From: Bacteroidia bacterium
GTDB lineage: Bacteria; Bacteroidota; Bacteroidia; NS11-12g; UBA9320
Assembly (NCBI GenBank): GCA_965216465.1
Contig: CBDCFW010000006.1
Span: 992,001-1,056,000 of the forward strand
DNA: 64,000 nucleotides
Direction: 5' to 3'
Shown: positions 16,900-56,229 of the stretch, one piece after another
How the letters are laid out: every line of letters starts with the position of its first letter
How positions within the stretch are numbered: the stretch's first letter is position 1
The notes under the pieces: generated by a model
Databases searched by the model: none
What the model was told of the DNA's origin: nothing
Seen by the model: the letters and a program-made list of their open reading frames with translations, nothing else
Program-made: the position numbers and the translations under genes

Positions 16900-17133
16900 T
16901 TATTTGTTATTTGTGGCCTTAGGTTTGATCTGAGCCTGTTTTTCTTCCTTAAACTCAACAATAGCAACCTCGGTATCAAATTCTGCAGTGCAGGCTTTTA
17001 ATCCGCCAACTTCAAATGATTTGTTAGCCTTAGAAATAGAAGAAACAGGTCTTGCTTCTGAATCCTTTTTAGTGGTCTCAGCCAAAACAAATGTTCCGAT
17101 ACAGATTAGAATTAATGTATAAAAGATCTTCAT
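16900..17133 (-). CDS. Small secreted hypothetical protein (77 aa)
   Basis: Clear Sec signal (MKIFYTLILICIGTFVLA); fills an intergenic gap; sigma54-like promoter upstream. Confidence 0.6.
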   Translation of the reverse strand: MKIFYTLILICIGTFVLAETTKKDSEARPVSSISKANKSFEVGGLKACTAEFDTEVAIVEFKEEKQAQIKPKATNNK

Positions 17134-17162
17134 CTCGTAAGTAATAAGTTCATTTTAGAATG

Positions 17163-17177
17163 TCAATTCACATGCCA
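17163..17177 (-). promoter_or_regulatory. Putative sigma54 (-24/-12) promoter
   Basis: Minus strand reads TGGCAT-GTGAA-TTGA, matching TGGCAY-N5-TTG spacing, about 30 nt before the ATG at 17133. Confidence 0.5.
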
Positions 17178-17339
17178 CGCTCCAAGGTAGTTCGTAAACA
17201 TCAACAAATCAGAGAGTTAATTGCAATCATTCGAAATGTATAGGTTCTTGCTTTTATCCCAAAATGGGAATATCAATCTAAATTTTATGGCTGAATTTGA
17301 ATGAAATCAGGCTATTTTTGCCGCCCAAATAGAATAATC

Positions 17340-20867: not shown

Positions 20868-20876
20868 GGCTGTTAA

Positions 20877-21113
20877 TTATCCTACGTTACCAGTGATATA
20901 ATCAACTGCATCTCCTACAGTAGCAATTTTCTCAGCTTGCTCATCAGGAATTGCAATGTTAAATTCTTTTTCAAATTCCATGATTAGTTCTACTGTATCT
21001 AAAGAGTCAGCACCTAAATCATTTGTAAAGCTTGCATCAATTGTTACCTCAGATTCTTCTACACCAAGTTTGTCTACGATGATTGATGTTACTTTTTCAG
21101 CTATTTCAGACAT
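20877..21113 (-). CDS. acpP: Acyl carrier protein
   Basis: [13 protein letters not shown] phosphopantetheine site. Confidence 0.98.
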
Positions 21114-21200
21114 ATTTAAATAATTTTTGTTAAGTGGTGCAAAGAACTATTTTTTAGTCAAAAAAGACAAAATTAATTTGCATTAAACTTATTCAATTAC

Positions 21201-24188: not shown

Positions 24189-24288
24189 CTCTGATTGTAT
24201 CTATTTTGGCAACAAATCTAGAATTAAGCAAGCTTACTTTGAGGTTGACAATTGTTAATAACTAACTTTGCATACTTTTTTATATACA

Positions 24289-25692
24289 ATGGAATACAGA
24301 ATAGAAAAAGACAGTATTGGAGAGGTAAAAGTGCCTGCAGAAAGATACTGGGCTGCGCAAACCCAAAGGTCATTAGAAAACTTCAAAATTGGTAATCAGC
24401 GTATGCCAATTGAAATCATAAGAGCATTCGGAGTATTGAAAAAATGTGCTGCGATGACAAATCATGAATTAGGAGTGCTTGCAGAAGATAAGATGAAACT
24501 TATTTCAGCAGTTTGTGATGAAATTATTGAAGGTAAACTTGATGACGAATTTCCGTTGGTAATTTGGCAAACAGGAAGCGGTACCCAAAGCAACATGAAC
24601 GTAAATGAGGTAATCGCTAATCGCGGTCATGTATTAAACGGAGGGAAACTAAGTGATGCAGAAAAAGTATTACATCCTAACGATGATGTAAACAAATCGC
24701 AAAGTAGTAACGATACATTTCCAACAGCAATGACTATTGCCGTTTACAAACAAATGGTTGATTTTGCTATTCCAGGTCTACAAGTATTGAAAGATACCTT
24801 TAAGAAAAAGGCAAGGGACTTTAAGGATGTAGTTAAGATTGGAAGAACTCACTTTATGGATGCAACTCCATTAACGTTGGGTCAAGAATTCTCAGGTTAC
24901 AGAAGACAACTCGAATTAAGTATTAAAGCACTTGAAAAAGCTATGGATACGGCAACTGAGCTTGCACTTGGTGGCACAGCAGTAGGAACTGGCCTGAATA
25001 CACCAAAAGGATATTCTGAAATGGTTGCTGATAAGATAGCAAGAGAAATGGCAATGCCATTCAGAACAGCTGAAAACAAATTTGAAGCATTGGCTGCTCA
25101 CGACGCTATGGTTGAGCTTCATGGTGCTTTAAAGAGAGCTGCAGTGAGCTGCATGAAGATTGGAAACGATATTCGAATGCTGAGCTCTGGTCCTCGAAGT
25201 GGTATTGGTGAAATCATTATCCCAAGCAACGAACCAGGATCTTCTATTATGCCAGGTAAAGTAAACCCAACTCAAGCCGAAGCTCTAACCATGGTTTGTG
25301 CTCAAGTAATGGGTAATGATGTTGCAGTTTCAGTTGGAGGTAGTAATGGTCATTTTGAATTGAATGTATTTAAACCGATGATCGCAACCAACCTACTACA
25401 ATCAGCGAGAATATTAGGTCAAGCGTGTTTATCATTTAACAACAACTGTGTTGTTGGCATTGAACCAAATCACGCAGAGATTAAAAACAAATTGGATAAT
25501 TCGTTGATGTTGGTTACAGCTTTAAATACCCATATTGGTTATGACAAAGCCGCCAAAATTGCTAAGAAAGCATACAATGATAATTCTACTTTAAAGGCAG
25601 CTGCTCTTGAATTAGAGTACTTAACTGAAGAAGAATTTGATGCTTGGGTTAAACCAGAAGACATGTGTGGAGATACAGAATTAGGATTCTAA
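24289..25692 (+). CDS. fumC: Fumarate hydratase class II
   Basis: [32 protein letters not shown]; TAACTTTG promoter at 24263-24270. Confidence 0.97.
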
Positions 25693-25713: not shown

Positions 25714-25744
25714 AAAAAAGGATCGCCTAGGCAATCCTTTTTTT
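25714..25744. terminator. Bidirectional intrinsic terminator
   Basis: AAAAAAGGATCGCC-TA-GGCAATCCTTTTTTT between fumC and fhs. Confidence 0.8.
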
Positions 25745-25765: not shown

Positions 25766-27433
25766 TTATGACAATCCGGTAATCGTACCGTTGTTGTCAA
25801 TGTCCATTCCTTCAGATGCAGGTACAGTAGGTAGACCTGGCATACGCATCATGTTGCCTAGAATAGGAATTAAGAATCCTGCTCCTGCAGCAATCTCAAA
25901 TTCTCTTACTGTAATTCTGAATCCTTCAGGTCTTCCAACTAACTTGTCGTTATCTGAGAATGATTTTTGTGTTTTCGCCATACAGATTGGTAGGTGGTTA
26001 AGCCCAAGTTTGTCAATTGTTCTCAACCCTCTTTTTGCTGCGGCTGCAAAATCCACCCCCTCTGCACCATAAATTTCGCGTGCAATAGTTTCGATTTTTT
26101 CAATAACAGAACTGTTCCAGTCGTACAATTTGTGAAAATCGCTTTTCCCACTTTCAACGGCATCAACAACGGCTTGAGCTAGATCTTGTGTGCCGTTTCC
26201 TCCTTCTGCCCATCCTTTGCTTAGAACAGCTTTAACGCCAATGGAAGCGCATTTTTCAATTAGCCAATCAATTTCTTCCTGGCTATCAGTATGGAAGTTG
26301 TTTACAGCAACAACCCGCTCCAAGCCAAATTTAGCCATGTTTTCTATATGCTTTTCAAGGTTTGCGAATCCTTTTTGAACACGCTCTAAGCTTGGGGTGT
26401 TGTATTCTTCTTTTGGTGACCCTCCGTGGTGACGAAGTGCTCTAATGGTTGCTACTATTACAACAGCTTTTGGTTTTAAGTTGCCATAACCGCATTTAAT
26501 ATCTAAGAATTTCTCAGCCCCTAAGTCTGCACCGAAACCAGCCTCGGTTACTACATAATCAGAAAGCGACATACCCATTTTAGTAGCGATAATGGTGTTC
26601 GTTCCTTGAGCGATGTTCGCAAATGGTCCACCGTGAATAATTGCCGGGTTATGCTCTAAAGTTTGCACCAAGTTTGGCTTGATTGCATCCTTCAATAAAA
26701 GCGTCATTGCATTTTCTGCGTTTAGATCTCTTGCATATACCGGTTTTCTATCGTAAGTATACCCAACAAAGATGTTTCCTAATTTTTCCTTAAGGTCAGC
26801 AATATCTTTTGCCATACATAAGATTGCCATAACTTCACTAGCAGCAGTGATATTGAATCCATCCTGTCTAGGAATTCCATTTGCAGTGCCCCCTAAACCA
26901 ATGGTAATGTCTCTTAATGCACGGTCGTTCATATCAATAACACGCTTCCATAGAATGGTACGCGGGTCAATATTCAAACTTCTTGTTTTGCTTTGAAGGT
27001 TGTTGTCGATCAATGCTGCAAGAAGGTTATTAGCTTTTTCAATCGCTCCAAAGTCTCCAGTAAAGTGAAGGTTGATATCTTCCATTGGAACAACTTGAGA
27101 ATGACCTCCTCCTGCTGCACCACCTTTAATACCAAAAACAGGTCCTAGTGATGGCTCTCTTAATACAACTAAAGATTGCTTTCCAATTTTGTTAAGACCT
27201 TCATTCAACCCGATTGATACAGTTGTTTTTCCTTCTCCTGCCGGAGTTGGAGTTAAAGCGGTTACAAGTACCAAATTGCTTTTAGCAATCTTGTCCTCAT
27301 TAATAAGTTCTAAAGGAAGCTTTGCCTTATACTTACCATACTGCTCAATGTCGTTTGATGAGATGTTTACTTTAGCAGCGATATCATTGATATGCTGCAT
27401 TTCGACTTGTTGTGCGATTTCTAAATCAGTCAT
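25766..27433 (-). CDS. fhs: Formate--tetrahydrofolate ligase
   Basis: TPAGEGKTT, KGGAAGGG, HGGPFANIA, EAGFGADLG, MPGLP. Confidence 0.97.
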   Translation of the reverse strand: MTDLEIAQQVEMQHINDIAAKVNISSNDIEQYGKYKAKLPLELINEDKIAKSNLVLVTALTPTPAGEGKTTVSIGLNEGLNKIGKQSLVVLREPSLGPVFGIKGGAAGGGHSQVVPMEDINLHFTGDFGAIEKANNLLAALIDNNLQSKTRSLNIDPRTILWKRVIDMNDRALRDITIGLGGTANGIPRQDGFNITAASEVMAILCMAKDIADLKEKLGNIFVGYTYDRKPVYARDLNAENAMTLLLKDAIKPNLVQTLEHNPAIIHGGPFANIAQGTNTIIATKMGMSLSDYVVTEAGFGADLGAEKFLDIKCGYGNLKPKAVVIVATIRALRHHGGSPKEEYNTPSLERVQKGFANLEKHIENMAKFGLERVVAVNNFHTDSQEEIDWLIEKCASIGVKAVLSKGWAEGGNGTQDLAQAVVDAVESGKSDFHKLYDWNSSVIEKIETIAREIYGAEGVDFAAAAKRGLRTIDKLGLNHLPICMAKTQKSFSDNDKLVGRPEGFRITVREFEIAAGAGFLIPILGNMMRMPGLPTVPASEGMDIDNNGTITGLS

Positions 27434-39320: not shown

Positions 39321-42300
39321 TTGAAAGCTGCCAAAGAGACCGCCTATAAAGAGACACTACTATTAATCTTAGTTTGTAAGGATTTGATTAAAAAATTGAA
39401 TACAATTAGAATTGTAAATGGATCTTTATTGGCCATTTGTTTTTTATTCCTTCTCTTAGGCGTGGGCATGCAATCTGTTGCCCAAACTGACTCTTTGCGT
39501 TATGAATTAAAAGACAAAAAACCCTATGAAGATGATAAGGTAAATCTTATTGATTTTAAAGACCCTCCCAATATTAAAACCATATACAAATACGACCCCA
39601 CTACTGGGATGTATTTAGAAATTATTACTGTTGGAGGGAAACCTATAGGCTCTCCAAGAGCGCTTACAGCAACTGAATATTTGAGAGCTAGAGAGCGTCA
39701 AGCCCGAGATGAGTACTATCGTAAAAAAAGCAACGCGGCTAATTACGTAAAAGGAGGAGGCATCATTCCAAAAATTGCTGTTACCCCTGAAATATTTGAT
39801 AAGGTATTTGGAGGAGGAATAATAGATATTCGGCCAACCGGTTCTGCCGAGGTAACCTTTGGAGGGAATTTTAACAAAGTTGAGAACCCGACTTTCCCTG
39901 TTCGTCAACAACGAAATGGTCAGTTTGATTTTGGCATGAAAATGCAACTAAATGTGACCGGACAAATTGGTGATCGCCTAAAACTAAATTGGAATTACGA
40001 CACTGAAGCTACGTTTGAGTTTGAAAACCAAATGAAGCTCAATTGGCAAGGAACGGATGATGATATCTTAAAAAATATTGAACTGGGTAATGTTAGTCTA
40101 CCCTTGAACGGTTCCCTTATTCAAGGAGGTCGAAATCTTTTTGGTGTAAAAACTGAAATGCAATTCGGTAAAACTACAGTTGCTCTTATTGCTACACAAG
40201 ATAAAGGAGAAACAAGAGAGACTGAAGTAAATGGTGGTGCCCAAATTACCAACTATGATATACAGGCTCATAATTATGATCAGAACAGACACTACTTCTT
40301 GTCTCAATATTTTGCAGATAATTACGATTTTGCTTGTTCAAATCTTCCTCAAATCAATTCTAATGTTCAAGTAAACTACGTTGAAGTTTGGGTCACCAAT
40401 AGAAATAATGCTGTAGGAAACTCAAGAAATGTAATGGGTTTCATGGATTTGGGAGAAATGGAAGACGATGTTCATCGTGAGTGGTTGCTCCCAGGTAGTG
40501 CTGCATTTCCAGATAATGAGGCTACAGACCTTTATCAAAACTATGTAAGAGGCCAAGATTTCTGTAACCCAGCAGATCAAAGACTGGTACTTGGAACAGA
40601 CTATGAGTGTTTAAGCAATGCTCGGCAGTTGAATAACAATGAATTTACTTTCCACCCAACTTTAGGCTATATTTCACTGAATCAGTCACTGAACAACGAT
40701 GAGGTTCTGATGGTGGCATATGAGTATTCTATTAATCTGGTTAACTACCAAGTTGGAGAATTTGCTATTGACAATCCTCAAACTGGCGGAAATGAGAGTC
40801 ACCTTAATCTGAAACTCCTAAAGCATTCAACAATCAAAACCAATCTTCCGGCTTGGGATTTGATGATGAAGAATATTTATTCACTGAACACATACAACCT
40901 TCAAAAAGAAGATTTCTCATTGAATGTTGTTTATGCGGATGACCCTTCAGGTGCTGACTTGAATTACTTGCCAGTTCCTGATTCTGAAAATGCTATCAAG
41001 AATAAGCAGTTGATTACAGTGCTTAACCTTGACCGTTTAAATAAGCAGTTTGAGCCAAAGCCTGACGGTATTTTTGATGTTGTAGATAACATCACGATTC
41101 ATGCCGAGAGAGGAAGAATCATATTCCCAGTTAGAGAACCATTTGGTGCGTTTTTACGTAGTCAGTTTGTTGACGAAGCAGAAGCAGATTATTACGCATT
41201 TGACTCCTTGTATCGAACGACAAAGTGGAATGCCGAACAGGACCTTAAACACAACAAGTTTTTCTTACGAGGTACGTTTAAAGGAAGTTCATCTGATCAA
41301 ATTCGATTACAGTGTTACAATATTTCGCAAGGCTCTGTTAGGGTAACTGCAAACGGAAACGTGTTGAATGAAGGTTCCGATTACATTGTCGACTATACGA
41401 TGGGAACGGTAAGAATTGTAAATCAAGGAATTTTAAATTCAGGGGCATCGATTAAGGCAACATGTGAGAGTAATTCATTAATTAATATTCAACAGAAATC
41501 ACTTGTTGGAGCACGTTTCGATTATAAGCACTCCGATAAGTTGATTCTTGGAGGTACGTTCATGCACATGACCGAACGGCCACTTACAAATAAGGTAAAT
41601 ATTGGAGAAGAACCTCTTCTTAATTCAATTTGGGGATTAGACGGAAGCTATAATACAGACTCAAGATTCTTAACACGAATGGTCGATAAGCTTCCTTTCA
41701 TTGAAACCAAGGCAAAGTCTACTGTAAGTTTTACGGGTGAGTTTGCTCACCTCATACCTCATAAAGCGAAAACAATGGGTGAAAGAGGTACGTCTTATCT
41801 TGATGATTTTGAAGGAGCGGAGACACCTTATGATATTAAGTACGTACGTAGCTGGAGACTTGCAAGTGTGCCCCAGGGTCAACCTGAGCTCTTCCCAGAA
41901 ACTGTAAATCCTTTACACGCTGATAGCTTGTATAATTCAAAAAGAGCCAACTTAAACTGGTACAACATCGACCCAGTTTTCCAAAACGCTCAAGCAACGC
42001 TTACACCAGATAATATCAAGAATAATCCACGAGAGATGTCTAATCACTTTGTAAGAACAATCTTTCTTGAAGAAGTATTCCCTGAAATTGAGTTGCAACA
42101 AGGACAACCGCAGCAAATTCCGACATTAGATTTAGCTTATTATCCAAAGGAAAAAGGTCAGTACAACTACAATACAGAAGATTTAAATGCTGACGGAAGT
42201 TTAGCAAACCCAAAAGAAAACTGGGGTGGAATAATGCGTAGAATTGAAACAAATGATTTTGAAGCAACCAATATTGATTACATCGAAATTTGGTTGATGG

Positions 42301-45300
42301 ATCCATTTGTTTATTCAAAGCACAATGGAACGCAACACAACACAGGTCAACTGTATCTTAATATCGGTAGCGTTTCAGAAGATATTATTCCGGATAGAAG
42401 ACGTTCTGCAGAGAATGGATTGCCAACTCCAAAAGGGAATTTTCAAGTTGATAGCGGAAAATATGCTTTTACGCCTAAAGGCCAAATTATCAACAAGGCG
42501 TTTGACAATGATCCAGACGCAAGAGAGATTCAGGATGTTGGTTTAGATGGGATGGATGATGAGACTGAAAGAACTTGGTTAAAGGGGTATTTAGATGATA
42601 TAGCAGCGAAACACGGAACAAATTCTGCAGCCTATCAGCTGGCCCAAGCTGACCCTTCGAATGACAATTACGTTTATCCTCGTGATCCAATTTACGACCA
42701 GCAAGATGCTCTTATTCTTAAAAGATACAGACGATTTAATGGCTTTGATGGGAACTCAACTTTAGACAAACTTGACGACGGAACACCAATGTCGGGTAAC
42801 ACAATTCCGGATGATGAAGACATCAATCAAGATTATACTGTAAACCTAAACGAAGAATACTACCAATACCGCATCGAGCTTGACCCAGCGAAGATGGTAA
42901 TCGGTGAGAATTACATTGCAGATGTTAAAGAGGTAGACGCAATTCAACTCGATGAAGGTGAGTTGCCAAATAAAATCAACTGGTATCAATTAAAAATTCC
43001 TATTCGTCAATATGAGAAGAAAGTCGGGGGGATACAAGATTTTAAATCAATACGATTCATGAGAATGTTCGTAAAGGGATTTGAAGACAGTGTTGTTTTA
43101 CGTTTCGCAAACCTTCAACTGGTAAGAGCTGACTGGAGACGTTATTTGAATACATTAAAATTCCCGCCAAAAGTGGGTCCTCCAATTGATCCAAATGACG
43201 ACGCAGACCTTGTGGTTTCTACGGTGAATATTGTAGAGAACAGTAGAAGAACTCCAATTAAATATGTTGTTCCTCCTGGGTTTAACAGAGAGATTGATCC
43301 AACCCAAATAGGCAACGTTCAACAGAATGAGCAATCGCTTTCTATTGCAGTTTGTAACTTAGAAAAAGAAGACGCTCGAGGGGCATACCGAACACTCGAT
43401 TTAGACATTAGAAATTACAAGAGCTTGAAGATGTTTATTCATGCTGAGTCTCAAACAGCCCAAAATGGCGATGCGGTTGCAATAATGCGAATCGGTACAG
43501 ACTTGGAGAACAACTTCTATCAGTACGAAATTCCACTGCAGCTGACACCAATTGGATCTGCAGATCCACAAGCTATTTGGCCAACTGCAAATGAATTAAT
43601 TGTAGATCTTGAAGAGTTTTACAGAATAAAACTTAACCGCCAGAAAAGTGGAGGTGATCCGAACGGATACTATACTGAAACTTTACCGAACGGACATAGA
43701 ATTAGTATCATTGGTTTACCCGATGTAAGTAATGTAAGAACTGTTTTACTCGGAGTGAAGAATTCTGCAAATAGTTCAGTTGAGAATTTATGTGCGGAAG
43801 TATGGTTTAACGAGTTGAGGCTGGTTGACTTTGTCAATAAAGGAGGCTATGCAGCAAATGCTAGAATGGTCACTCAATTGGCGGATCTAGCAACCGTTAC
43901 ATTGTCTGGAAACTACCAATCAATTGGATTCGGGGCTATCGACAAAAAACTAAATGATCGTAATCTAGAAGAAGTAATTCAATATGATGTTTCTTCAAAC
44001 ATAGAATTGGGTAAATTCTTCCCGCAAAAATCAGGTATTACGATTCCAATGTTCATTGGCTACAATGAAAATATTGTAAACCCCAAGTACTATCCGCTTA
44101 ACCCAGATATCTTACTTCGTACGGCAATCGATAACGCCGAGACTCAGGCTGAAAAAGATCTCATTAGAGAAGCTGCACAAAATTATTCGTCGCGGTACAG
44201 TCTAAACTTTACCAACATTAAGAAGAATAGAACTTCTTCATCCAAAGGCAATCCCCACTTTTACGATATAGAAAACTGGAACTATTCATTCTCTTACCAA
44301 CGCTTGTTTAGACGAAGCCAGATTGTAGAAATGAACGATGTGAAAACCTATAAGTCTAGTTTGGGCTATAACTTTACAGCGAAGCCAAAAGTATGGGAGC
44401 CTTTCAAAAAGCATGTAAGAGCGAAAAGCTTAGGCTTAATCCGAGATTTCAATATTGGATTGGTACCATCGAATTTGAATTTTAGAGTAGATGTTGATCG
44501 TCGTTACTCTGAAATGAAGAACAGAAACAACGACAACTTTAAGTCGATTGTTCCAATTCTTTATGACAAGACTTTTAGCATCGGTAGGGTATATGGATGG
44601 AAATGGAATCTAGCAAATAGTCTTTCAGTTGATTATGCCTCAAACGCAACGTCATGGGTAGAGGAGCCTTTTGGAGCACTTGATTCGAAAGAGAAGCGAG
44701 ATACCATGTGGGAGAATTTCTGGTCACTTGGTCAGTTGAACAACTTTAACCAGACCATTAATGTAAATTATACCCTTCCATTCAGAAAAATTAGAGTTTT
44801 AGATTGGGTAAATGTGAGCTCTAGATACAGTGCCAATTATGAGTGGAAGAATGCTCCTCCAGCGAATATTACTTTAGGTAACACCATTCAAAATTCACGA
44901 ACTACTTCGTTGAATGGTAACATGAACTTCATTTCATTGTACAATAAGTCTTCGTTCTTGCAAAAAATTAATCGTCCGCCGCCTCCACGAAAGCGAACTG
45001 ACGAAGAGGATGAAGATGAGACGAAGAAGAAAGAAGAAATTAGCTCAACAACTCGAGCATTCTTTAAATTCTTGATGATGATGAAGCAGGCTCAGTTTAA
45101 AGTAACAAAAACTGAAGGTACGACTCTACCAGGTTTCACGAAGGTGATGGATTATGTCGGCCAAAACTTTAAACACAACACCCCTGGATTCCCATTTATT
45201 TTGGGTGTACAAGATGAAAACTTGCGTTACAACATTGCCAATAATGGATTTTTGACGAATGACACAACCCAAAACAATAGATTCTTGCAATTAGATGCAT

Positions 45301-46439
45301 TAGACATTTCTGGGTCTGCAACATTGGAGCCATTTAAAGGATTTAGAGTAAATATCAACTTCAGCAAGCGTCAAAGTATAAATACAAGCAGTAACTTTAG
45401 ATACAGTGAAAGTGCTACGGATTATGTTGATATTGGTTTAACAGAAGCAGCATCATTTACCACAACTTTTGGTATGTGGAATACCATGTTCGATAAGCTG
45501 AACCGAGAAAATTACCAATCGGATGTTTATGAGCAATTCAAGAATAACAGATATGTAATTGCGTCAAGACTGCAAGTACTCGAATTTACTGAAGGTAAGT
45601 ATGCTGAACTGTATGGTAATCGAATTAATGAGCAAGATGTGAAAACAGGTTTCCCAATTGGTTACAGCAGAACACATCAAGATGTATTGCTTTATTCATT
45701 CTTAGCGGCGTATAGCGGTAAAAATGCGAACAGCATTGAGTTAACTCCATTCAAGAAAATTCCAATTCCGAATTGGCGAGTGACATATAACGGTCTTGCT
45801 CAATTAGACTTGTTTAAAGATTTCTTTAGCAATATATCCATCACACATGCATACTCATCAACATTGAGCATGGGTAATTTCTTTAGACCTTTGGATTATG
45901 GTATTGATTCTCTTGTTTCTGGTGAGAACTTAGTTACTCAGTACGGGTATCAAAGCGGAGTTTCGTTGGTTGAGCGATTGACACCTTTAGCAGGGATTGA
46001 TATCACAACAAAAGGAGGTATTAGCTTTAAACTGGAATACAAAACCGACAGAAATCTTCAATTGAATATGCGTAACATTCAAATGATTGAAACGCGTAAC
46101 AAAGAGTTTGTAATTGGAGGAGGATGGAGAACGACAGGTGTTCGTCTTCCAATTAAATTCCAAGGAGATAGAATTGTATTGAGAAATGATCTTAACATGC
46201 GATTTGACCTTTCTATTCGTGATGGAGTGACAATCGTAAGAAATATTGAAACCGATCAGTTTAACGCTACGGGTGGAATAAGAACAATAAACATCCGTCC
46301 ATCTATTGATTACAAAATCAATGAAGTGTTAAACTTCAGAATGTTCTACAACAGAAATGTGAACGAGCCCGTTACCAGTAACTCATTCCCAAGTGCATTG
46401 ACAGACTTTGGGGTAACGTTGAGGTATACGATGCAGTAA
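39321..46439 (+). CDS. sprA: T9SS outer-membrane translocon SprA (Sov)
   Basis: About 2370 aa with SprA-type motifs (IDIRPTGSAE, LPLNGSLIQG, WDLMMKNIY, WGGIMR, IRFMRMF, VWFNELRL); downstream of ruvA; true start may be slightly later. Confidence 0.95.
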   Translation: MKAAKETAYKETLLLILVCKDLIKKLNTIRIVNGSLLAICFLFLLLGVGMQSVAQTDSLRYELKDKKPYEDDKVNLIDFKDPPNIKTIYKYDPTTGMYLEIITVGGKPIGSPRALTATEYLRARERQARDEYYRKKSNAANYVKGGGIIPKIAVTPEIFDKVFGGGIIDIRPTGSAEVTFGGNFNKVENPTFPVRQQRNGQFDFGMKMQLNVTGQIGDRLKLNWNYDTEATFEFENQMKLNWQGTDDDILKNIELGNVSLPLNGSLIQGGRNLFGVKTEMQFGKTTVALIATQDKGETRETEVNGGAQITNYDIQAHNYDQNRHYFLSQYFADNYDFACSNLPQINSNVQVNYVEVWVTNRNNAVGNSRNVMGFMDLGEMEDDVHREWLLPGSAAFPDNEATDLYQNYVRGQDFCNPADQRLVLGTDYECLSNARQLNNNEFTFHPTLGYISLNQSLNNDEVLMVAYEYSINLVNYQVGEFAIDNPQTGGNESHLNLKLLKHSTIKTNLPAWDLMMKNIYSLNTYNLQKEDFSLNVVYADDPSGADLNYLPVPDSENAIKNKQLITVLNLDRLNKQFEPKPDGIFDVVDNITIHAERGRIIFPVREPFGAFLRSQFVDEAEADYYAFDSLYRTTKWNAEQDLKHNKFFLRGTFKGSSSDQIRLQCYNISQGSVRVTANGNVLNEGSDYIVDYTMGTVRIVNQGILNSGASIKATCESNSLINIQQKSLVGARFDYKHSDKLILGGTFMHMTERPLTNKVNIGEEPLLNSIWGLDGSYNTDSRFLTRMVDKLPFIETKAKSTVSFTGEFAHLIPHKAKTMGERGTSYLDDFEGAETPYDIKYVRSWRLASVPQGQPELFPETVNPLHADSLYNSKRANLNWYNIDPVFQNAQATLTPDNIKNNPREMSNHFVRTIFLEEVFPEIELQQGQPQQIPTLDLAYYPKEKGQYNYNTEDLNADGSLANPKENWGGIMRRIETNDFEATNIDYIEIWLMDPFVYSKHNGTQHNTGQLYLNIGSVSEDIIPDRRRSAENGLPTPKGNFQVDSGKYAFTPKGQIINKAFDNDPDAREIQDVGLDGMDDETERTWLKGYLDDIAAKHGTNSAAYQLAQADPSNDNYVYPRDPIYDQQDALILKRYRRFNGFDGNSTLDKLDDGTPMSGNTIPDDEDINQDYTVNLNEEYYQYRIELDPAKMVIGENYIADVKEVDAIQLDEGELPNKINWYQLKIPIRQYEKKVGGIQDFKSIRFMRMFVKGFEDSVVLRFANLQLVRADWRRYLNTLKFPPKVGPPIDPNDDADLVVSTVNIVENSRRTPIKYVVPPGFNREIDPTQIGNVQQNEQSLSIAVCNLEKEDARGAYRTLDLDIRNYKSLKMFIHAESQTAQNGDAVAIMRIGTDLENNFYQYEIPLQLTPIGSADPQAIWPTANELIVDLEEFYRIKLNRQKSGGDPNGYYTETLPNGHRISIIGLPDVSNVRTVLLGVKNSANSSVENLCAEVWFNELRLVDFVNKGGYAANARMVTQLADLATVTLSGNYQSIGFGAIDKKLNDRNLEEVIQYDVSSNIELGKFFPQKSGITIPMFIGYNENIVNPKYYPLNPDILLRTAIDNAETQAEKDLIREAAQNYSSRYSLNFTNIKKNRTSSSKGNPHFYDIENWNYSFSYQRLFRRSQIVEMNDVKTYKSSLGYNFTAKPKVWEPFKKHVRAKSLGLIRDFNIGLVPSNLNFRVDVDRRYSEMKNRNNDNFKSIVPILYDKTFSIGRVYGWKWNLANSLSVDYASNATSWVEEPFGALDSKEKRDTMWENFWSLGQLNNFNQTINVNYTLPFRKIRVLDWVNVSSRYSANYEWKNAPPANITLGNTIQNSRTTSLNGNMNFISLYNKSSFLQKINRPPPPRKRTDEEDEDETKKKEEISSTTRAFFKFLMMMKQAQFKVTKTEGTTLPGFTKVMDYVGQNFKHNTPGFPFILGVQDENLRYNIANNGFLTNDTTQNNRFLQLDALDISGSATLEPFKGFRVNINFSKRQSINTSSNFRYSESATDYVDIGLTEAASFTTTFGMWNTMFDKLNRENYQSDVYEQFKNNRYVIASRLQVLEFTEGKYAELYGNRINEQDVKTGFPIGYSRTHQDVLLYSFLAAYSGKNANSIELTPFKKIPIPNWRVTYNGLAQLDLFKDFFSNISITHAYSSTLSMGNFFRPLDYGIDSLVSGENLVTQYGYQSGVSLVERLTPLAGIDITTKGGISFKLEYKTDRNLQLNMRNIQMIETRNKEFVIGGGWRTTGVRLPIKFQGDRIVLRNDLNMRFDLSIRDGVTIVRNIETDQFNATGGIRTINIRPSIDYKINEVLNFRMFYNRNVNEPVTSNSFPSALTDFGVTLRYTMQ

Positions 46440-46454
46440 TTTCAGAACCAATTT

Positions 46455-47109
46455 ATAAGTAAGGATTGCCTCCCTATGGTCGGCTTTCCTTGGGTGGTAA
46501 CGAATAACCTAAGCCTTGAAGCTATCGCTTCTATGGTCTTTTTAAGCTATAATCTTATTTGTGCAAATAAGTAAGGATTGCCTCCCTACGGTCGGCTTTC
46601 CTTGAAGGGGTAACGAATAACCTAAGCCTTGAAGCTATCGCTTCTATGGTCTTTTTAAGCTATAATCTTATTTGTGCAAATAAGTAAGGATTGCCTCCCT
46701 ACGGTCGGCTTTCCTTGGGTGGATACGAATAACCTAAGCCTTGAAGCTATCGCTTCTATGGTCTTTTTAAGCTATAATCTTATTTGTGCAAATAAGTAAG
46801 GATTGCCTCCCTATGGTCGGCTTTCCTTGGTGGGTAACGATCAACCTAAGCCTTGAAGCTATCGCTTCTATGGTCTTTTTAAGCTATAATCTTATTTGTC
46901 CAAATAAGTAAGGATTGCCTCCCTACGGTCGGCTTTCCTTGGGTGGGCTACGATTATTAAAGTCCATAAGCTGCGCTTAATTGTCCTTTTTGATTGTACT
47001 GTGGCTTTAATCAGGAAGGATTGCCTCCCTATGGTCGGCTTTCCTTGGGTGGATACGAATAACCTAAACCTTGAAGCTATCGCTTCTATGGTCTTTTTTA
47101 TAGCTATTA
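46455..47109. repeat. Tandem array of six ~112-bp structured non-coding units
   Basis: The 31-nt core AAGGATTGCCTCCCTAYGGTCGGCTTTCCTT starts at 46461, 46573, 46686, 46798, 46910 and 47016 (periods 112, 113, 112, 112, 106). Units 1-4 are near-identical, unit 5 has a divergent second half, unit 6 runs into an inverted repeat. Confidence 0.97.
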
Positions 47110-47142
47110 TCTCAAGCGAGCTTGGCTAATAGCTATAAAAAA
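47094..47142. repeat. Long hairpin with perfect 16-bp inverted repeat closing the array
   Basis: TTTTTTATAGCTATTA (47094-47109) / TAATAGCTATAAAAAA (47127-47142), with inner CAAG-CGAG-CTTG. Confidence 0.85.
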
Positions 47143-47167
47143 AGCCCAGTACTTTCGTACAAGGCTT
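47137..47167 (-). terminator. Intrinsic terminator of tRNA-Pro
   Basis: Minus strand AAGCC-TT-GTAC-GAAA-GTAC-TG-GGCTT followed by a T-run. Confidence 0.8.
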
Positions 47168-47173
47168 AGGTTG

Positions 47174-47248
47174 TCGGGTAGAGAGGATTCGAACCTCCGA
47201 TCTCTGGTCCCCCAGACCAGCACTTTAACCGGACTAAGCTACTACCCG
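47174..47248 (-). tRNA. tRNA-Pro (anticodon GGG), CCA not encoded
   Basis: Minus strand CGGGTAG...CTACCCG-A acceptor stem, anticodon arm CTGGT-CTGGGGG-ACCAG, T-arm GGAGG-TTCGAAT-CCTCT. Confidence 0.96.
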
Positions 47249-47271
47249 ATCTGATAGGATTTTAATGAGAG

Positions 47272-47279
47272 CAAATTTA
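47272..47279 (-). promoter_or_regulatory. Bacteroidota -7 promoter element for the tRNA
   Basis: TAAATTTG (TAnnTTTG) on the minus strand, 23 nt before the tRNA 5' end. Confidence 0.65.
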
Positions 47280-47364
47280 TTTTCTTTTTTGAATTGCCAA
47301 GAAACAATTGAGCAGAATAGCGGGTTATTTATTCAATTTCATAGATTAGCTCCAAATTCCACTT

Positions 47365-49056
47365 TTGACGAAAGAGTTATACATAGCACCCATCTTGTCT
47401 ATTGGTGAAAAAGATGAATCAAATTTTCATTTGTTCGATGGTATTCGAACAGGAGTTGTAAATCAATTGGTAAGCATCAAAGCATTTAAGGTACTGTCAG
47501 AGGCTTCAGACCTTGAAGATGGATATAAGGGCTATGTTGTAAACTCCAGTTGTTCAATTCTGAAGAATCAAGTGTATTTGTTAATTCGCCTGATACAGAA
47601 AGAAAAAACCATTGCTCACAAGTCTTTTGAAGGAAAAGTGTCTGATTTAAATCTTCTTCATAATCAGGTAGCACGATTTGTGGTTAATCAAATTCTTGGT
47701 CGATCTAAATCAACTATTAAAACTGCTGAAACAATTTCTACTAAGGCAAATCAACTCTATCTTTTAGCGGAATTCAATTTTAAGAAAGGCAATCCAGAAG
47801 CATTGGCCAAATCCAAAGAGCTTTACGAACAAGTATTGAAGCACGAACCTAACTTTTCATATGGTCACTCGGGCTATGCTAAGGTTCTGTTTAATTTGAT
47901 TCGATACAATCAACTTTCTACTAAAGTATACCAAACCGCAATGGAATGCTTGTCGGCAGCAATGGATAGTGACCCCGAGAATATTGAGGCTTATACTACA
48001 CGAGCTATGTTTGCCATGTATATTGAGAAAGACTTTCCAAAGGCGGGTGTATTCTTCGAAAATGCATTGGCTTTAAAAAAAGACTACGCCACGGTGTACA
48101 GAGAATACATTTGGTATCTAGCGGCATTAGGAAAGTACAATGAGGCTATAAAGTTGGTTGACATTGCACTCGATTACGACCCCTTGTCTCTAGATCTTAG
48201 ATGCTCAAAAGGTGACCTGTTTAGATACGCAGATAAGTTCGACGAAGCTTTGTTCTGTTATCAAGATGCTTTTCAAATGGACCCGAATTACAGAAGATGC
48301 ATTATTGGTTTAATTTCTTGTTATAAGCACAAACAAAACCAAGATCGAGCAAAGTACTATTTGGATTTGTACCTATCTAAACTAGCCAACCCATTAGCGG
48401 GGTATGGAAGTGCAGGTGCTTATGCCATTTGGTTTGGAGATCAAGAATTGTTGAAACTTGCGGAAGAAAAACTGCAGGAGCGTTCTGTAAAAGAGCCCGA
48501 TGTTGACCTTACAGCAGATTATCTTTTTATGTATGGTCATGAAGCATCTGATATAGCAATTCATTATCTGAAGAAGATGTATGCAAGTGGTGGCGGTTTG
48601 ATATCTGTGATTTGCGATCCAACTTTGTCAAAATTGAGAGAGAGTGATGCATATAAAGAAGTTACTGCGGATCTTGATTTATCCGATAGCACATCTATTA
48701 AGTTTGAATCACCAGATCGCATCATTCACATTCAATCTGAGCTTTCAGAAAGTTTGACCATTCCAAAAGTGTCATTCTTGTATGGTGAAGCTGAAGGAAA
48801 CTACACGCACATCTTTTATAAAAAAGGGCTGAATATAGCCTCGCACCTTATGCGTGTGAAAATATCTTCACTCGAAAAACAACTAGCCATAGAAGGAATT
48901 GAAAGAATTCACAAGTCGTATCTTGTGAATATTAGAGGAGCCAACTACAAACTTAAAGGCAACGCCCGTGAAGCTTACTTAGTTGATAGCTCCTTCGATC
49001 TAGAACTTCCTGTTTCCAGAACGCGGTTTTCAGAGCTTAAGAAAACACTGGGGTAA
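47365..49056 (+). CDS. Putative one-component regulator: TolB-N-like domain, TPR repeats, C-terminal LytTR DNA-binding domain
   Basis: N-terminal IAPI..LFDGIRTGVVNQL pattern; TPRs (ALDYDPLS, AFQMDPNY); LytTR motifs EAEGNYT, RIHKSYLVN, LPVSR. Confidence 0.8.
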   Translation: MTKELYIAPILSIGEKDESNFHLFDGIRTGVVNQLVSIKAFKVLSEASDLEDGYKGYVVNSSCSILKNQVYLLIRLIQKEKTIAHKSFEGKVSDLNLLHNQVARFVVNQILGRSKSTIKTAETISTKANQLYLLAEFNFKKGNPEALAKSKELYEQVLKHEPNFSYGHSGYAKVLFNLIRYNQLSTKVYQTAMECLSAAMDSDPENIEAYTTRAMFAMYIEKDFPKAGVFFENALALKKDYATVYREYIWYLAALGKYNEAIKLVDIALDYDPLSLDLRCSKGDLFRYADKFDEALFCYQDAFQMDPNYRRCIIGLISCYKHKQNQDRAKYYLDLYLSKLANPLAGYGSAGAYAIWFGDQELLKLAEEKLQERSVKEPDVDLTADYLFMYGHEASDIAIHYLKKMYASGGGLISVICDPTLSKLRESDAYKEVTADLDLSDSTSIKFESPDRIIHIQSELSESLTIPKVSFLYGEAEGNYTHIFYKKGLNIASHLMRVKISSLEKQLAIEGIERIHKSYLVNIRGANYKLKGNAREAYLVDSSFDLELPVSRTRFSELKKTLG

Positions 49057-49159: not shown

Positions 49160-49828
49160 ATGATAGAATCATCAACACTTAAATTTTTAAGATCGCTCGA
49201 GGCGAACAATAACCGCGAATGGTTTCAAGATCATAAATCAGAGTATAACAAAGCCAAGTCTAATGTTGAAGATTTGGTCATGGCATTAGAGAATGAGTTG
49301 AATAAAACAGACAAAATTGAAGCTCATAAACTCTATAGGATTTATCGTGACGTTCGCTTTTCAAATGATAAAACACCTTATAAATCATGGTTCAGTGGAT
49401 ACTTCAAACGAAGCGGAGCGGAACGCAGAGGAGGATATTATTTCAGCATTCAGCCAGAAGGCACTGTAATTGGAGGAGGGTTTTACGGACCCAATAAAGA
49501 AGATCTGCTTCGAATTAGAAAGGAGTTTGAGGCTGACGGCAATACAATAGAATCGATAGTAAAAGACCCTCGATTTATTAAACATTTCAATCAGATGGAA
49601 GGAAGCGAAGTGTCTACAGCACCAAAAGGATTTCAAAGAGATCATCCAAACATTAAGTGGATTCGCAAAAAGCAACTTTATGCATTCGAGCATTTTTCTG
49701 ATTCAGAGGTAACATCCAAAAATTTTGTTCAAGACGCAGCAAAAAGCTTTAAGGCAATTAGACCATTTTTTGACTATATGTCTGATGTGTTAACCACAAA
49801 TCTCAATGGGGAGAGTGTTTTAAAATGA
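49160..49828 (+). CDS. DUF2461 family protein
   Basis: FLRSLEANNNREWF, RIYRDVRFSNDKTPYK, APKGF..DHP motifs. Confidence 0.88.
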   Translation: MIESSTLKFLRSLEANNNREWFQDHKSEYNKAKSNVEDLVMALENELNKTDKIEAHKLYRIYRDVRFSNDKTPYKSWFSGYFKRSGAERRGGYYFSIQPEGTVIGGGFYGPNKEDLLRIRKEFEADGNTIESIVKDPRFIKHFNQMEGSEVSTAPKGFQRDHPNIKWIRKKQLYAFEHFSDSEVTSKNFVQDAAKSFKAIRPFFDYMSDVLTTNLNGESVLK

Positions 49829-50964
49829 TTGAAAACTATTTAAAAATAAGAGCTCATACCGAAGCACTGTGTGAGCCTCTTGAGCTGGAAGATTATAGCG
49901 TACAGCCCATGCTCGACGTGTCACCACCAAAATGGCACTTGGCTCATATAACATGGTTCTTTGAGCAGTTCTTGCTAACGGAGTACTACCCTGATTATAA
50001 GGTGTATAATGAGGATTATGCGTACTTATTTAATAGCTACTATAACAATGTAGGAGATCGGGTGATTCGTGCAAATCGAGGGTTGATGACTCGTCCTGCG
50101 GTGAGCGATATTTTAGCTTATCGGAAATATGTAGACCAACACATGGTTAAACTTCTTGAAAAGGGAATTGATAAAACCGCTCAGGAGGTATTGGCCTTGG
50201 GGTTGAATCACGAGCAACAGCACCAAGAGTTATTGGCCTACGACATTAAATATATTTTGGGCAATCAAGTAACCTTCCCAAAATATGGCGATGGATTTGC
50301 TTTAAATCCTGAGAAGACCGAAGGTTTCACGCGAGTGGAAGAAGGAGTATACGAAATTGGTTATGAAGGGGAGGACTTTCATTTCGATAATGAGAGAGGT
50401 AGACACAAAGTATACCTTCACGAATTTGAAATTTCCAATCGTTTGATAACGAATGGAGAATGGAAAAAATTCATTAAAGATAGTGGGTATAAAAACTTCA
50501 ATTTCTGGCATGCCGAAGGATGGGATTGGGTAAACGATAACAAAATTGAAGCCCCGTTGTATTGGCACTGGCACAATGATGAGTGGCATTATTACAACAT
50601 GGAAGGGTTGCAGCCTGTTCGAGATGATCTGCCAGTAATGAATATTAGCTTATTTGAGGCTTTTGCCTTCGCTGAATGGAAGGGAATGCGCCTGCCAACC
50701 GAAGCAGAGTGGGAAGTAGCCGCTGACCATTTTAATTGGGGACAGGTTTGGGAATGGACGAATAGCGCTTATTTACCATATCCCGGATATAAAAAAGAGG
50801 AGGGAGCAATTGGGGAGTACAACGGTAAGTTCATGGTCAACCAAAAAGTGTTGAAAGGCGGATCGGTTGCCACTCCTAAAAATCACACTAGAAAAACATA
50901 CCGGAACTTTTTTCATCCTCATGTGAGATGGCAGTTTTCGGGTTTAAGATTAGTTAAGAAATGA
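49825..50964 (+). CDS. egtB: Ergothioneine biosynthesis sulfoxide synthase EgtB
   Basis: DinB-like SPPKWHLAH..WFFE, FNSYY, Fe-binding HEQQHQE; FGE-like RLPTEAEWE, VWEWT, GEYNGKFM, YRNFF. Confidence 0.92.
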   Translation: MIENYLKIRAHTEALCEPLELEDYSVQPMLDVSPPKWHLAHITWFFEQFLLTEYYPDYKVYNEDYAYLFNSYYNNVGDRVIRANRGLMTRPAVSDILAYRKYVDQHMVKLLEKGIDKTAQEVLALGLNHEQQHQELLAYDIKYILGNQVTFPKYGDGFALNPEKTEGFTRVEEGVYEIGYEGEDFHFDNERGRHKVYLHEFEISNRLITNGEWKKFIKDSGYKNFNFWHAEGWDWVNDNKIEAPLYWHWHNDEWHYYNMEGLQPVRDDLPVMNISLFEAFAFAEWKGMRLPTEAEWEVAADHFNWGQVWEWTNSAYLPYPGYKKEEGAIGEYNGKFMVNQKVLKGGSVATPKNHTRKTYRNFFHPHVRWQFSGLRLVKK

Positions 50965-51926
50965 AAATGATTAATACAGAAACACAAGTTGAATTTGCAA
51001 GCGATGTTGATAGTGGGTTAAGCACCTATCCTAAAAAGCTAAGCAGTAAATATTTTTATAACGACCAGGGCGATAAACTTTTTCAGCAAATTATGGCCAT
51101 GCCAAGCTACTATGTAACCGATGCTGAAATTGAAATTCTAAAAACGCATGGAAAAAGCATTGCTCGAGCAATGAACACAAATGGTCATCTCAATATTTTT
51201 GAGCTTGGTGCTGGAGATGGAACTAAAACAATACTGTTTTTAGAGTCTTTAGAAGAATTGAATATCGACTATACCTACTACCCAATTGATATTTCAGCTG
51301 ATGTTTTGCAGACATGCGAAAACAATGTGAGAGATAGGTTCTCAGATGCAAAGGTTGAAGGTGTTAACTTGTCGTATGACGACGCGTTAGATAGTTTACT
51401 GCTTACGGAAGATAGCACCAATTTGGTCATGTTCTTAGGGTCAAACCTTGGAAACTTGTACCACAAAGAGGCAATAACATTTTTAGAGAAGATTAGCAGA
51501 TCCCTCAATGCTAACGACTATCTATTGATGGGATTAGACAGCATGAAAGACCCTGAAGTAATTCTTGAAGCGTACAATGATAAAGAAGGGATTACTAAGG
51601 CTTTCAATTTGAATCTTCTTACTCGAATAAATGAAGAATTAGGCGGCAACTTCAATACAGAAAACTATAAACACTGGCCTGTATACGACCCAGAAAGTGG
51701 AACTACAACGAGTTATTTGGTTAGTACAGTTGAGCAGGAGGTTCATGTTGCGGCCCTCAATAAGACCTATAAGTTCGATAAATGGGAGTCGATTCATACT
51801 GAAATTTCTCAGAAATATGATGAAACCACAATAGAGTGGCTTTGCCAAATGTCAGGATTATCACTTCATTCGATTTATTCTAATGAGAAAAATGAATTTT
51901 TCGAATGTTTAATTAAGAAGAGATGA
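50961..51926 (+). CDS. egtD: L-histidine N-alpha-trimethyltransferase EgtD
   Basis: KKLSSKYFY, PSYYVT..E, ELGAGDGTKT, FLGSNLGN, AYND..G.T..FNLN, ESIHTEISQKY. Confidence 0.93.
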   Translation: MKMINTETQVEFASDVDSGLSTYPKKLSSKYFYNDQGDKLFQQIMAMPSYYVTDAEIEILKTHGKSIARAMNTNGHLNIFELGAGDGTKTILFLESLEELNIDYTYYPIDISADVLQTCENNVRDRFSDAKVEGVNLSYDDALDSLLLTEDSTNLVMFLGSNLGNLYHKEAITFLEKISRSLNANDYLLMGLDSMKDPEVILEAYNDKEGITKAFNLNLLTRINEELGGNFNTENYKHWPVYDPESGTTTSYLVSTVEQEVHVAALNKTYKFDKWESIHTEISQKYDETTIEWLCQMSGLSLHSIYSNEKNEFFECLIKKR

Positions 51927-52204
51927 AAGCAATTTGGAATGACAAAATTTTAGCAGAAAGTGACGATACGATTGTTATAGAGGGCAATCATTATTTCCCT
52001 GAAGATTCAATCAATAAAGAGTATTTTGTGAACAGCGATACGCATACAGTTTGCCATTGGAAAGGGGTGGCCTCATATTACACCTTAAATGTTGATGGTC
52101 AGCAAAATCCAGATGCTGCTTGGTATTATCCAGAGACACGAGAATTGGCGAAGCACATCGAAGGATATATCGCATTCTGGCACGGTGTTGAAATCGTTGA
52201 ATAA
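51923..52204 (+). CDS. DUF427 domain protein
   Basis: EGNHYFP, CHWKGVASYY, AAWYYP, IAFW. Confidence 0.88.
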   Translation: MKAIWNDKILAESDDTIVIEGNHYFPEDSINKEYFVNSDTHTVCHWKGVASYYTLNVDGQQNPDAAWYYPETRELAKHIEGYIAFWHGVEIVE

Positions 52205-52224
52205 AATAATTGTACCTTTAACCT

Positions 52225-52371
52225 ATGAAAAATGTATTAATCTTCTTGATCGTTTTGATTGGGGTTGTTATGATTTATTTAGGAGCAACTGGCCCTAAAT
52301 TAATGCTTCCTCCGATTTTATCAGGAGTAGCATTTATCCTGATTGCCATTATGCTTTATAGCAAAGAATAG
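52225..52371 (+). CDS. Small two-TM membrane protein (48 aa), not in the ORF track
   Basis: MKNVLIFLIVLIGVVMIYLGATGPKLMLPPILSGVAFILIAIMLYSKE; TACCTTTA promoter-like element 4 nt before the ATG. Confidence 0.65.
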   Translation: MKNVLIFLIVLIGVVMIYLGATGPKLMLPPILSGVAFILIAIMLYSKE

Positions 52372-55956: not shown

Positions 55957-56001
55957 TCCTGTATAATTAAACAGGAGTTGAGAGATACTGTAAAGTATGT
56001 T

Positions 56002-56082
56002 AATTCCTACGGCAGCATTACCTGCATCAGGTGTATGGGTATCATCTCAGCAATACCGCAATGCGGTAAAGCACCCCTTTCT
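56002..56082 (-). ncRNA. TPP (THI-box) riboswitch
   Basis: Minus strand GGGGTGC...GCTGAGA...ACCC...ACCTGAT.CAGGTAATGCTG.CGTAGGAA, matching the TPP aptamer core, upstream of the TonB receptor. Confidence 0.93.
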
Positions 56083-56229
56083 GGGTGCAAAGGAATTAAA
56101 AACTTAGCAATACCATTTAAAATTATTGAAAAAGTGCCTTGGAAGCTGTTTGAGAACAGAACATTTTATCCCAATAATATGGTGATGTAAAATGGCTTAA
56201 CTACTTTCGTGGCCTTATTTGATTTCAGC

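Follow-up and report, generated by a model that had tools for sequence, protein, structure and literature searches.

The closest described counterpart, in layout, of the locus studied here is NsiR1 of Anabaena PCC 7120, a small RNA (sRNA) whose 60-nt gene stands in 12 tandem copies near hetF (PMC4030482, PMC6596454). As far as the excerpts of these papers go, which is the form in which all published systems are cited below, the NsiR1 copies are individually equipped with promoters (PMC4030482), and conservation of the array extends to at least 19 other heterocystous cyanobacteria (PMC6596454). The locus under study is an array of six head-to-tail non-coding units of 106-113 bp each, located at positions 46455-47125 of the + strand, between sprA and the gene for tRNA-Pro(GGG), in a 64,000-nt stretch of an uncultured marine Bacteroidia genome (assembly GCA_965216465.1, contig CBDCFW010000006.1, positions 992,001 to 1,056,000). 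This whole stretch is called the window below, and positions are counted from its first letter. We tentatively interpret the array as a + strand set of sibling structured-RNA modules that begins as the 3' untranslated region (3'UTR) of sprA.

The array shares with NsiR1 an intergenic arrangement of tandem direct repeats, with near-identical units of sRNA size beside a protein gene, and all six units end in a hairpin, a weak one, followed by at least five T residues. It differs from NsiR1 in two respects: the NsiR1 copies have individual promoters and the NsiR1 array is widely conserved, whereas here neither the scan with the Bacteroidetes consensus nor the sigma-70 scan gave a promoter per copy, and no relative was found. 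Similarity to NsiR1 does not extend to the sequence, since Rfam gave nothing.

OmrA and OmrB have conserved ends and a variable middle (PMC4211561). In the units of the array, similarly, a variable stretch separates the conserved 5' part from the terminator part, which is also conserved. In the PrrF1/PrrF2 pair, read-through gives the product PrrH, and longer species formed by read-through of a first terminator are a known theme. Both pairs differ from the array in that they comprise two copies, are Hfq-dependent and belong to Proteobacteria, whereas the array comprises six copies, belongs to Bacteroidia and is known from sequence alone. RNA regulation in Bacteroidota, which operates without Hfq or Shine-Dalgarno (SD) pairing, has been little explored.

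In Flavobacterium psychrophilum, 3' regions arising from partial termination are a recognised transcribed class (PMC9723704). Repetitive extragenic palindromic sequences (REPs), which carry an unpaired GTAG/CGTC tetranucleotide at one end, have been proposed to terminate transcription or to stabilise mRNA (PMC3733652). The array resembles REPs and bacterial interspersed mosaic elements (BIMEs) in being composed of short imperfect extragenic palindromes that are located downstream of a gene and reiterated in tandem together with their flanks.

Structure of the repeat units

Tandem Repeats Finder detected a single array (46455-47112; period 112, 5.9 copies, 85% matches, score 945), and this array is the sole tandem repeat with a score of at least 50 across the window. 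The mean column identity in the alignment of the six units is 87%. The start-to-start spacings of the conserved core described below are 112, 113, 112, 112 and 106 nt, none of them divisible by 3. All six reading frames of the array are interrupted, with a longest stop-to-stop frame of 77 aa, and the frames shift between units. A preliminary description of this DNA had proposed six tandem non-coding units with periods not divisible by 3, and in this respect it proved correct.

The units start with the sequence AAGTAAGG and fall into two types, the A-type (units 1-4 and 6) and the B-type (unit 5). Their most conserved part is the 32-nt core AAGGATTGCCTCCCTAYGGTCGGCTTTCCTTG, which occurs six times with 0 mismatches, on the + strand only (for positions see Table 1), and has zero occurrences in 100 shuffles. 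The core is followed by a short variable segment and by a second hairpin, termed hairpin B (GAAGC-TATC-GCTTC), with a T-run. An 18-bp palindrome, termed palindrome C (CTTATTTGTGCAAATAAG), is found at four positions only, one in each of units 1-4, and is absent from units 5 and 6; no further match to it was observed in the window at up to 3 mismatches. Thus, the anatomy given in the preliminary description (hairpin A, which is our core, then a variable window, hairpin B with a T-run, and palindrome C) was confirmed, as was the lack of palindrome C in units 5 and 6. A search for more copies of the unit in the window using nhmmer gave the six units only, with the next match at E 0.53, and the exact core pattern added none.

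Several other interpretations of the repeat were considered and discarded. A CRISPR array was rejected, in agreement with the preliminary description, since the inter-core stretches are near-identical in units 1-4 and 6 and do not form unique spacers, and since no Cas domain was found in the window. A tRNA-like unit was rejected as well: ARAGORN gave only tRNA-Pro, and the alignment between the unit and the tRNA locus covers nothing but the shared trailer described below. A coding repeat or small peptide was rejected because every frame is broken. A 13-codon open reading frame (ORF) starts from an ATG inside the 3' side of hairpin B (46532-46573 in unit 1, the same place in units 2-4, and 47087-47128 in unit 6; missing in unit 5); its product would be MVFLSYNLICANK in units 1-4 and MVFFIAIISSELG in unit 6. 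This ORF is probably meaningless and was not credited.

Both hairpins of the unit resemble terminators

The hairpin formed by the core is a strong 34-nt imperfect palindrome (-13.7 kcal/mol) with a C-rich apical part, CCUCCCUAY, and two T-T mismatches. The hairpin is followed by GGGTGG in place of a T-run and, being without a U-run, is not counted as an intrinsic terminator. Its arms match those of an ordinary terminator 21 kb away. The bidirectional terminator between the fumC-like gene and fhs (Table 1) has the stem arms AAGGATTGCC / GGCGATCCTT, and the core hairpin has the arms AAGGATTGCC...GGCnnTCCTT; the related hairpin spans 25718-25739. The two differ in that the core loop is about 10 nt longer, the core contains the two T-T mismatches, and GGGTGG replaces the T-run. 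With filters off, this terminator was the top covariance-model match outside the array (17.8 bits, E 0.079 for the window, a rough E-value). The gapped pattern AAGGANNGCC-N1-20-GGCNNTCCTT gave exactly seven sites, namely the six cores and the fumC/fhs terminator; this result is a lead rather than a proof, because the pattern was composed after the match had been seen. The likeness suggests that a small family of related terminator hairpins may exist in this genome.

The 3' module of the unit carries a strand-specific signature. On the + strand, a hairpin with a run of at least five T is located 3' of the core in all six units. Hairpin B with its T-run was detected by the terminator scan rule in units 1-4 and 6. 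The counterpart in unit 5, as read from the sequence, is TAAGC-TGC-GCTTA followed by TTTTT (46967-46991), in which the closing pair of the hairpin is changed on both sides, from G-C to U-A, and the stem is retained.

The 13-mer AACCTAAGCCTTG links this module to the neighboring tRNA gene. Five units carry it on the + strand, tRNA-Pro is immediately followed by it on the - strand, and the window contains 6 matches to it at no more than 1 mismatch against 0.08 expected. Both in the units and in the tRNA-Pro trailer, the 13-mer is followed by a hairpin and a T-run, with different inner stems (GAAGC/GCTTC in the units, GTAC/GTAC in the trailer). Thus, the 3' module of the unit is an inverted homologue of the terminator in the tRNA-Pro trailer. 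Since the core is similar to the fumC/fhs terminator and the 3' module to the tRNA-Pro trailer, each unit can be regarded as two terminator-type hairpins, a strong one without a U-run and a weak one with a U-run.

At the distal end of the array, an imperfect palindrome of about 115 nt (47058-47173) is made up of the tRNA-Pro trailer and the 3' part of unit 6, and at its centre lies a perfect 16-nt inverted repeat. The latter looks like a bidirectional terminator that would separate the array from tRNA-Pro, and the palindrome as a whole points to an inverted duplication of the terminator region between two convergent transcription units.

Variation among the units

Conservation in the array is non-random. 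Compared with the A-type consensus, unit 5 differs in 1 of the 38 columns of the core part (the Y position) and in 36 of the 73 columns elsewhere (Fisher 1.1e-7). The loops and internal loops of the core are preserved as well as its stems, in unit 5 as in the others. Among the five A-type units, 8 of the 14 columns vary in the segment 3' of the core, whereas the other 72 columns between core and T-run include 3 variable ones (Fisher 7.5e-6); the variants of this segment are point changes and a 1-nt indel only.

Units 1-4 are near-identical, spacers included. The outermost unit 6 differs from unit 3, between core and T-run, by two substitutions, T to G before the core and G to A in AACCTAAACC, and the diverged unit 5 stands between unit 6 and the A-type units 1-4. 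The divergence between the A- and B-types indicates that the array has existed for some time. The distribution of changes is that predicted for paralogous RNAs in which head and terminator are under constraint and the linker may vary, and it is unlike that of a neutrally decaying array.

Search for relatives

A search with Rfam 15, one of the checks proposed in the preliminary description, gave no family above its gathering score in the array. On the whole window at the gathering threshold, tRNA alone passed; at E<=10 on a 3-kb region, no match was found inside the array. At E<=10 on 256 nt, a partial alignment to Flavo-1 (RF01705; listed in PMC2864571), an RNA of Bacteroidetes, was obtained on the - strand at 46661-46695 (12.5 bits against a gathering score of 42, E 6.6). 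It covers model positions 20-57 of 76 and lies over palindrome C with its AATC/GATT flanks, which recur at the junctions of units 1-4. Flavo-1 is the only Rfam model that aligned anywhere in the array; membership was rejected in view of the chance-level score and the partial coverage of the model.

Using BLASTN in distant mode, we found no match to the array in plasmids and phages. The 22-nt centre of the core gave one match in species-representative genomes, with about one expected by chance. This match, in a Verrucomicrobia metagenome-assembled genome (MAG), is ascribed to chance because it lies inside GC-rich coding DNA and no repeat is present there. The negative result of this exact-word search is weak, since the nearest RuvA protein is 88% identical and there was possibly no close relative to find; the closest RuvA proteins are 82-88% identical, and those that carry an organism name are from Bacteroidia. 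Predicted proteins were searched for spurious ORFs derived from similar arrays, using + strand frames: a word-based search with a 46-aa frame gave no candidate, and HMMER with a 73-aa frame gave 0 of 1,835,955,588 proteins. Finally, the open-access literature on tandem or multicopy sRNAs in Bacteroidetes and flavobacteria, and on REPs and REP-associated tyrosine transposases (RAYTs) in Bacteroidetes, contains no description of such an array.

Proposed origin and function of the array

We propose, as a tentative scenario, that the array consists of six modules of about 87 nt each that would have been amplified by unequal crossing-over from terminator-type hairpins. Each module would comprise three parts: (i) the invariant 34-nt hairpin, whose C-rich apex CCUCCCUAY would serve as a functional head, that is, a protein-binding or base-pairing site, (ii) a short linker that is free to vary, and (iii) a weak intrinsic terminator, in which the 5-bp hairpin B is extended by a 3-bp outer helix and followed by U5. 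Transcription reading out of sprA would partly stop, or the transcript would be cut, at each of the weak terminators. The products would be several copies of one sRNA of about 87 nt in two versions, A from units 1-4 and 6 and B from unit 5, and the strong 16-bp palindrome at 47094-47142 would end the remaining transcription before it reaches tRNA-Pro. We infer transcription of the array, partial termination or processing at the units, and any action of the products in trans.

Several observations support this scenario. The hairpin with a T-run is found 3' of every core, and its stem is kept in the diverged unit 5. The core is likewise kept in unit 5, and the A-type units combine conserved ends with a variable segment. 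The sprA stop codon lies 16 nt from unit 1 with no terminator in the gap, and all units are oriented as sprA. The genome is compact and the array occupies the largest gap of the window, and the divergence of the two unit types shows that it is not of very recent origin. By analogy, the scenario would also agree with the known precedents for tandem sRNA arrays and for 3' regions formed by partial termination.

A number of results weigh against it. The stability of hairpin B is low (-8.6 kcal/mol for unit 1 and -3.5 for unit 5), and the terminators available for comparison are stronger, with -13.1 kcal/mol for the tRNA-Pro trailer and stems of 10-13 bp for others in the window. Ordinary intrinsic terminators are thus much stronger than hairpin B and, unlike the array, they are not iterated six times. 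The promoter TTG-N17-21-TAnnTTTG is absent from the units, although the adjoining tRNA-Pro has a perfect one; in the unit spacer CTTATTTG the TTTG is kept, the TA of TAnnTTTG is missing and no TTG is present upstream. No sigma-70-like site was found in 46300-47500. Covariation, another of the checks proposed earlier, is within chance: 2 of the 8 pairs of the terminator alignment are changed on both sides, a result equalled by 123 of 500 shuffles, and the 11 pairs of the core are uninformative because they never vary. Folding z-scores are, if anything, better on the - strand (-2.24 and -2.46) than on the + strand (-1.32 and -1.67). Pairing of the core with the variable segment to the 44 translation start regions in the window was no better than that of shuffled RNA (best score -30.5, and -32.0 +/- 2.9 for the shuffles). 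Rfam, plasmids, phages, species-representative genomes (except for the one chance match) and predicted proteins yielded no relative. Finally, unequal crossing-over or gene conversion via core homology, rather than selection, could give both the identical cores and the pattern of variation.

The array is most likely a lineage-specific tandem sRNA array or a 3'UTR hairpin array, both of which are known kinds of loci. The preliminary description regarded it as the best candidate for an undescribed system. We do not uphold this view: no associated gene or dispersed copy was found in the window and no relative in the collections searched, the hairpins resemble the ordinary terminators of the window, and nothing points to a new system for mobility, defence or editing. 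Among the alternatives offered there, a set of multiple structured RNAs and a tRNA-linked terminator stack are both tenable, and they are hard to tell apart on sequence evidence. If the units are expressed as discrete RNAs, the locus would be a clear case of a multicopy sRNA array in Bacteroidota, and new sRNAs would have been assembled from duplicated terminator hairpins in a 3'UTR. If they are not, the array is an ordinary lineage-specific minisatellite, at most of use as a strain marker.

Alternative explanations

The array could be, as the main though rather doubtful alternative, a neutral or at most cis-acting minisatellite, that is, a tandemly duplicated terminator region of sprA under concerted evolution that gives no trans-acting RNA. 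In the cis-acting version, the hairpins and weak terminators would work as a stack: sprA transcription would end there, the 3' end of the mRNA would be protected, and head-on entry of RNA polymerase into tRNA-Pro would be averted. The resemblance of both unit modules to terminators of the window (the inverted tRNA-Pro trailer and the fumC/fhs arms) fits this explanation, although the fumC/fhs likeness is borderline and was spotted after the fact. The near-identity of units 1-4, which extends to the spacers and implies recent amplification, also fits, as does the failure to find a promoter, a relative or an associated gene. However, a cis-acting hairpin needs its stem only, yet the loops of the core are invariant in the otherwise diverged unit 5. 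The similarity of the outermost unit 6 to unit 3, with unit 5 diverged, is not the simple edge decay of a neutral array, and a compact genome is unlikely to retain 650 bp of junk for long.

It is unlikely that the array is of the REP/BIME type, with the core being a member of a dispersed palindrome family that is moved by a HUH (RAYT/TnpA) enzyme encoded elsewhere and reiterated in tandem with flanking DNA. The core, as a 34-nt imperfect palindrome, is within the 20-40 bp range of REPs, a second hairpin with the same arms is found 21 kb away in a terminator, and the tandem reiteration of REP singletons with flanking DNA is described, at least in the excerpt cited (PMC3733652). On the other hand, the core ends carry neither a GTAG nor a CGTC tag; CGTC is on neither strand of the core, and GTAG is found solely on the - strand, within the apical loop of 3 of the 6 copies. 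The six copies share one orientation and are embedded in 112-nt units. No further copy was detected in the 64 kb by exact pattern, nhmmer or covariance model, no RAYT or transposase is encoded by the 44 window ORFs described below, and the 22-nt core centre is absent from species-representative genomes save for one chance match. Thus, the lack of the end tag and of REP-like dispersal within 64 kb speaks against the REP/BIME alternative of the preliminary description.

A role at the DNA level is still less probable. The array would then provide iterated protein-binding sites. Either palindrome C or the core would be the operator, and one candidate to bind it would be the protein with TPR and LytTR domains whose gene begins 240 bp beyond the array. 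The recurrence of an 18-bp palindrome at 112-bp spacing in units 1-4 and the proximity of a LytTR-domain gene are in line with this idea. However, neither units 5 and 6 nor the rest of the window (at up to 3 mismatches) contain palindrome C, LytTR proteins are known to bind direct repeats and not palindromes, no + strand gene lies downstream to be regulated, and a DNA site would have no need for strand-specific T-runs.

We consider it very improbable that the invariant hairpin is a handle for an RNA-binding effector encoded elsewhere, with the hypervariable segment as a specificity or guide segment, or that the array is a multi-site protein sponge. In the former case it would encode a small family of RNAs that each join a handle to a variable segment; either kind would be one so far undescribed in Bacteroidota. 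The preservation of the core together with its loops and the concentration of variation in one 14-nt segment leave room for such a role and give it no positive support; the segment varies only by a 1-nt indel and by point changes, and the window contains no partner gene.

An assembly artefact, either a wrong copy number or order or a repeat created by mis-assembly, is hardly to be expected: the source appears to be an uncultured Bacteroidia genome and tandem repeats are hard for short-read assembly, yet the contig has a length of 1.3 Mb, mis-assembly usually collapses repeats rather than expands them, and most units carry variants of their own (the Y position, the variable segments, TC in unit 4, G to A in unit 6, the B-type unit 5). 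Such variants identify the units as separate copies rather than a single repeat that was collapsed or inflated.

Genomic context

The features of the locus are listed in Table 1. The genome is compact: only 8 intergenic gaps in the window exceed 100 nt, and the array occupies the largest of them (925 nt). Four other gaps of 250-420 nt (16900-17300, 20868-21200, 51927-52348 and 55957-56208) contain no Rfam match, and a 93-aa ORF (51923-52204) may occupy part of the third of these.

Table 1. Coordinates of the repeat units and of the features discussed in the text (positions in the window).
Feature	Position	Strand	Description
Unit 1 (A-type)	46455..46567	+	core 46461-46492, hairpin B 46518-46531, T-run 46539-46543, palindrome C 46554-46571
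Unit 2 (A-type)	46568..46679	+	core 46573-46604, hairpin B 46631-46644, palindrome C 46667-46684; variable segment with 1-nt insertion GAAGGGGTA
Unit 3 (A-type)	46680..46791	+	core 46686-46717, hairpin B 46743-46756, palindrome C 46779-46796
Unit 4 (A-type)	46792..46903	+	core 46798-46829, hairpin B 46855-46868, palindrome C 46891-46908 (loop variant GTCC)
Unit 5 (B-type)	46904..47009	+	core 46910-46941, identical; remainder diverged; hairpin 46967-46979, T-run 46987-46991; without palindrome C
Unit 6 (A-type from core to T-run; flanks differ)	47010..47125	+	core 47016-47047, hairpin B 47073-47086, T-run 47094-47099
Terminal perfect inverted repeat	47094..47142	.	16-nt arms TTTTTTATAGCTATTA / TAATAGCTATAAAAAA, 47094-47109 / 47127-47142, 17 nt between
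tRNA-Pro 3' trailer	47136..47172	-	AACCTAAGCCTTG, then GTAC-GAAA-GTAC hairpin, run of 7 T, -13.1 kcal/mol
tRNA-Pro (anticodon GGG)	47173..47248	-	ARAGORN; Rfam tRNA 65 bits; convergent with the array
tRNA-Pro promoter	47272..47300	-	TTG-N18-TAAATTTG, canonical Bacteroidetes type
sprA, type IX secretion system (T9SS) translocon gene	39321..46439	+	ORF of 2372 aa; Pfam SprA_N E 4.7e-183
TPR + LytTR DNA-binding protein	47365..49056	+	Pfam; gene 240 bp past the array
fumC/fhs bidirectional terminator	25714..25743	.	AAAAAAGGATTGCCTAGGCGATCCTTTTTT; between fumC-like (24268-25692 +) and fhs (25766-27433 -)

Among the 44 ORFs of at least 110 aa in the window, we found no transposase, integrase, reverse transcriptase, RAYT or Cas domain, in line with the preliminary description, which had noted the lack of the first three. 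The remaining ORFs are housekeeping genes. The TPR + LytTR protein lacks a receiver domain and is an orphan regulator beside the array, the only close database match being the protein itself and its next relative (from a Balneola MAG) being 28% identical; a link between this gene and the array is speculation only.

The consensus with which the tRNA-Pro promoter was compared is that of Bacteroidetes (PMC9723704, cited from an excerpt). Three 20-kb scans of the window gave 38, 42 and 38 sigma-70-like sites, fewer in each case than the approximately 55 of the shuffles. Of the 44 genes, 3 have an SD-like motif no more than 20 nt from the start, and an anti-SD role for the CCUCC loop of the core was rejected for this reason. 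A replication origin or terminus at the array was rejected as well, as the GC skew makes no turn there. Further downstream, at 49825-51926, a protein with DinB_2 and FGE-sulfatase domains is followed by a Methyltransf_33 (histidine-specific methyltransferase) protein, with a DUF2461 gene upstream; we take this to be the domain make-up of EgtB and EgtD, and the two genes may be an ergothioneine pair.

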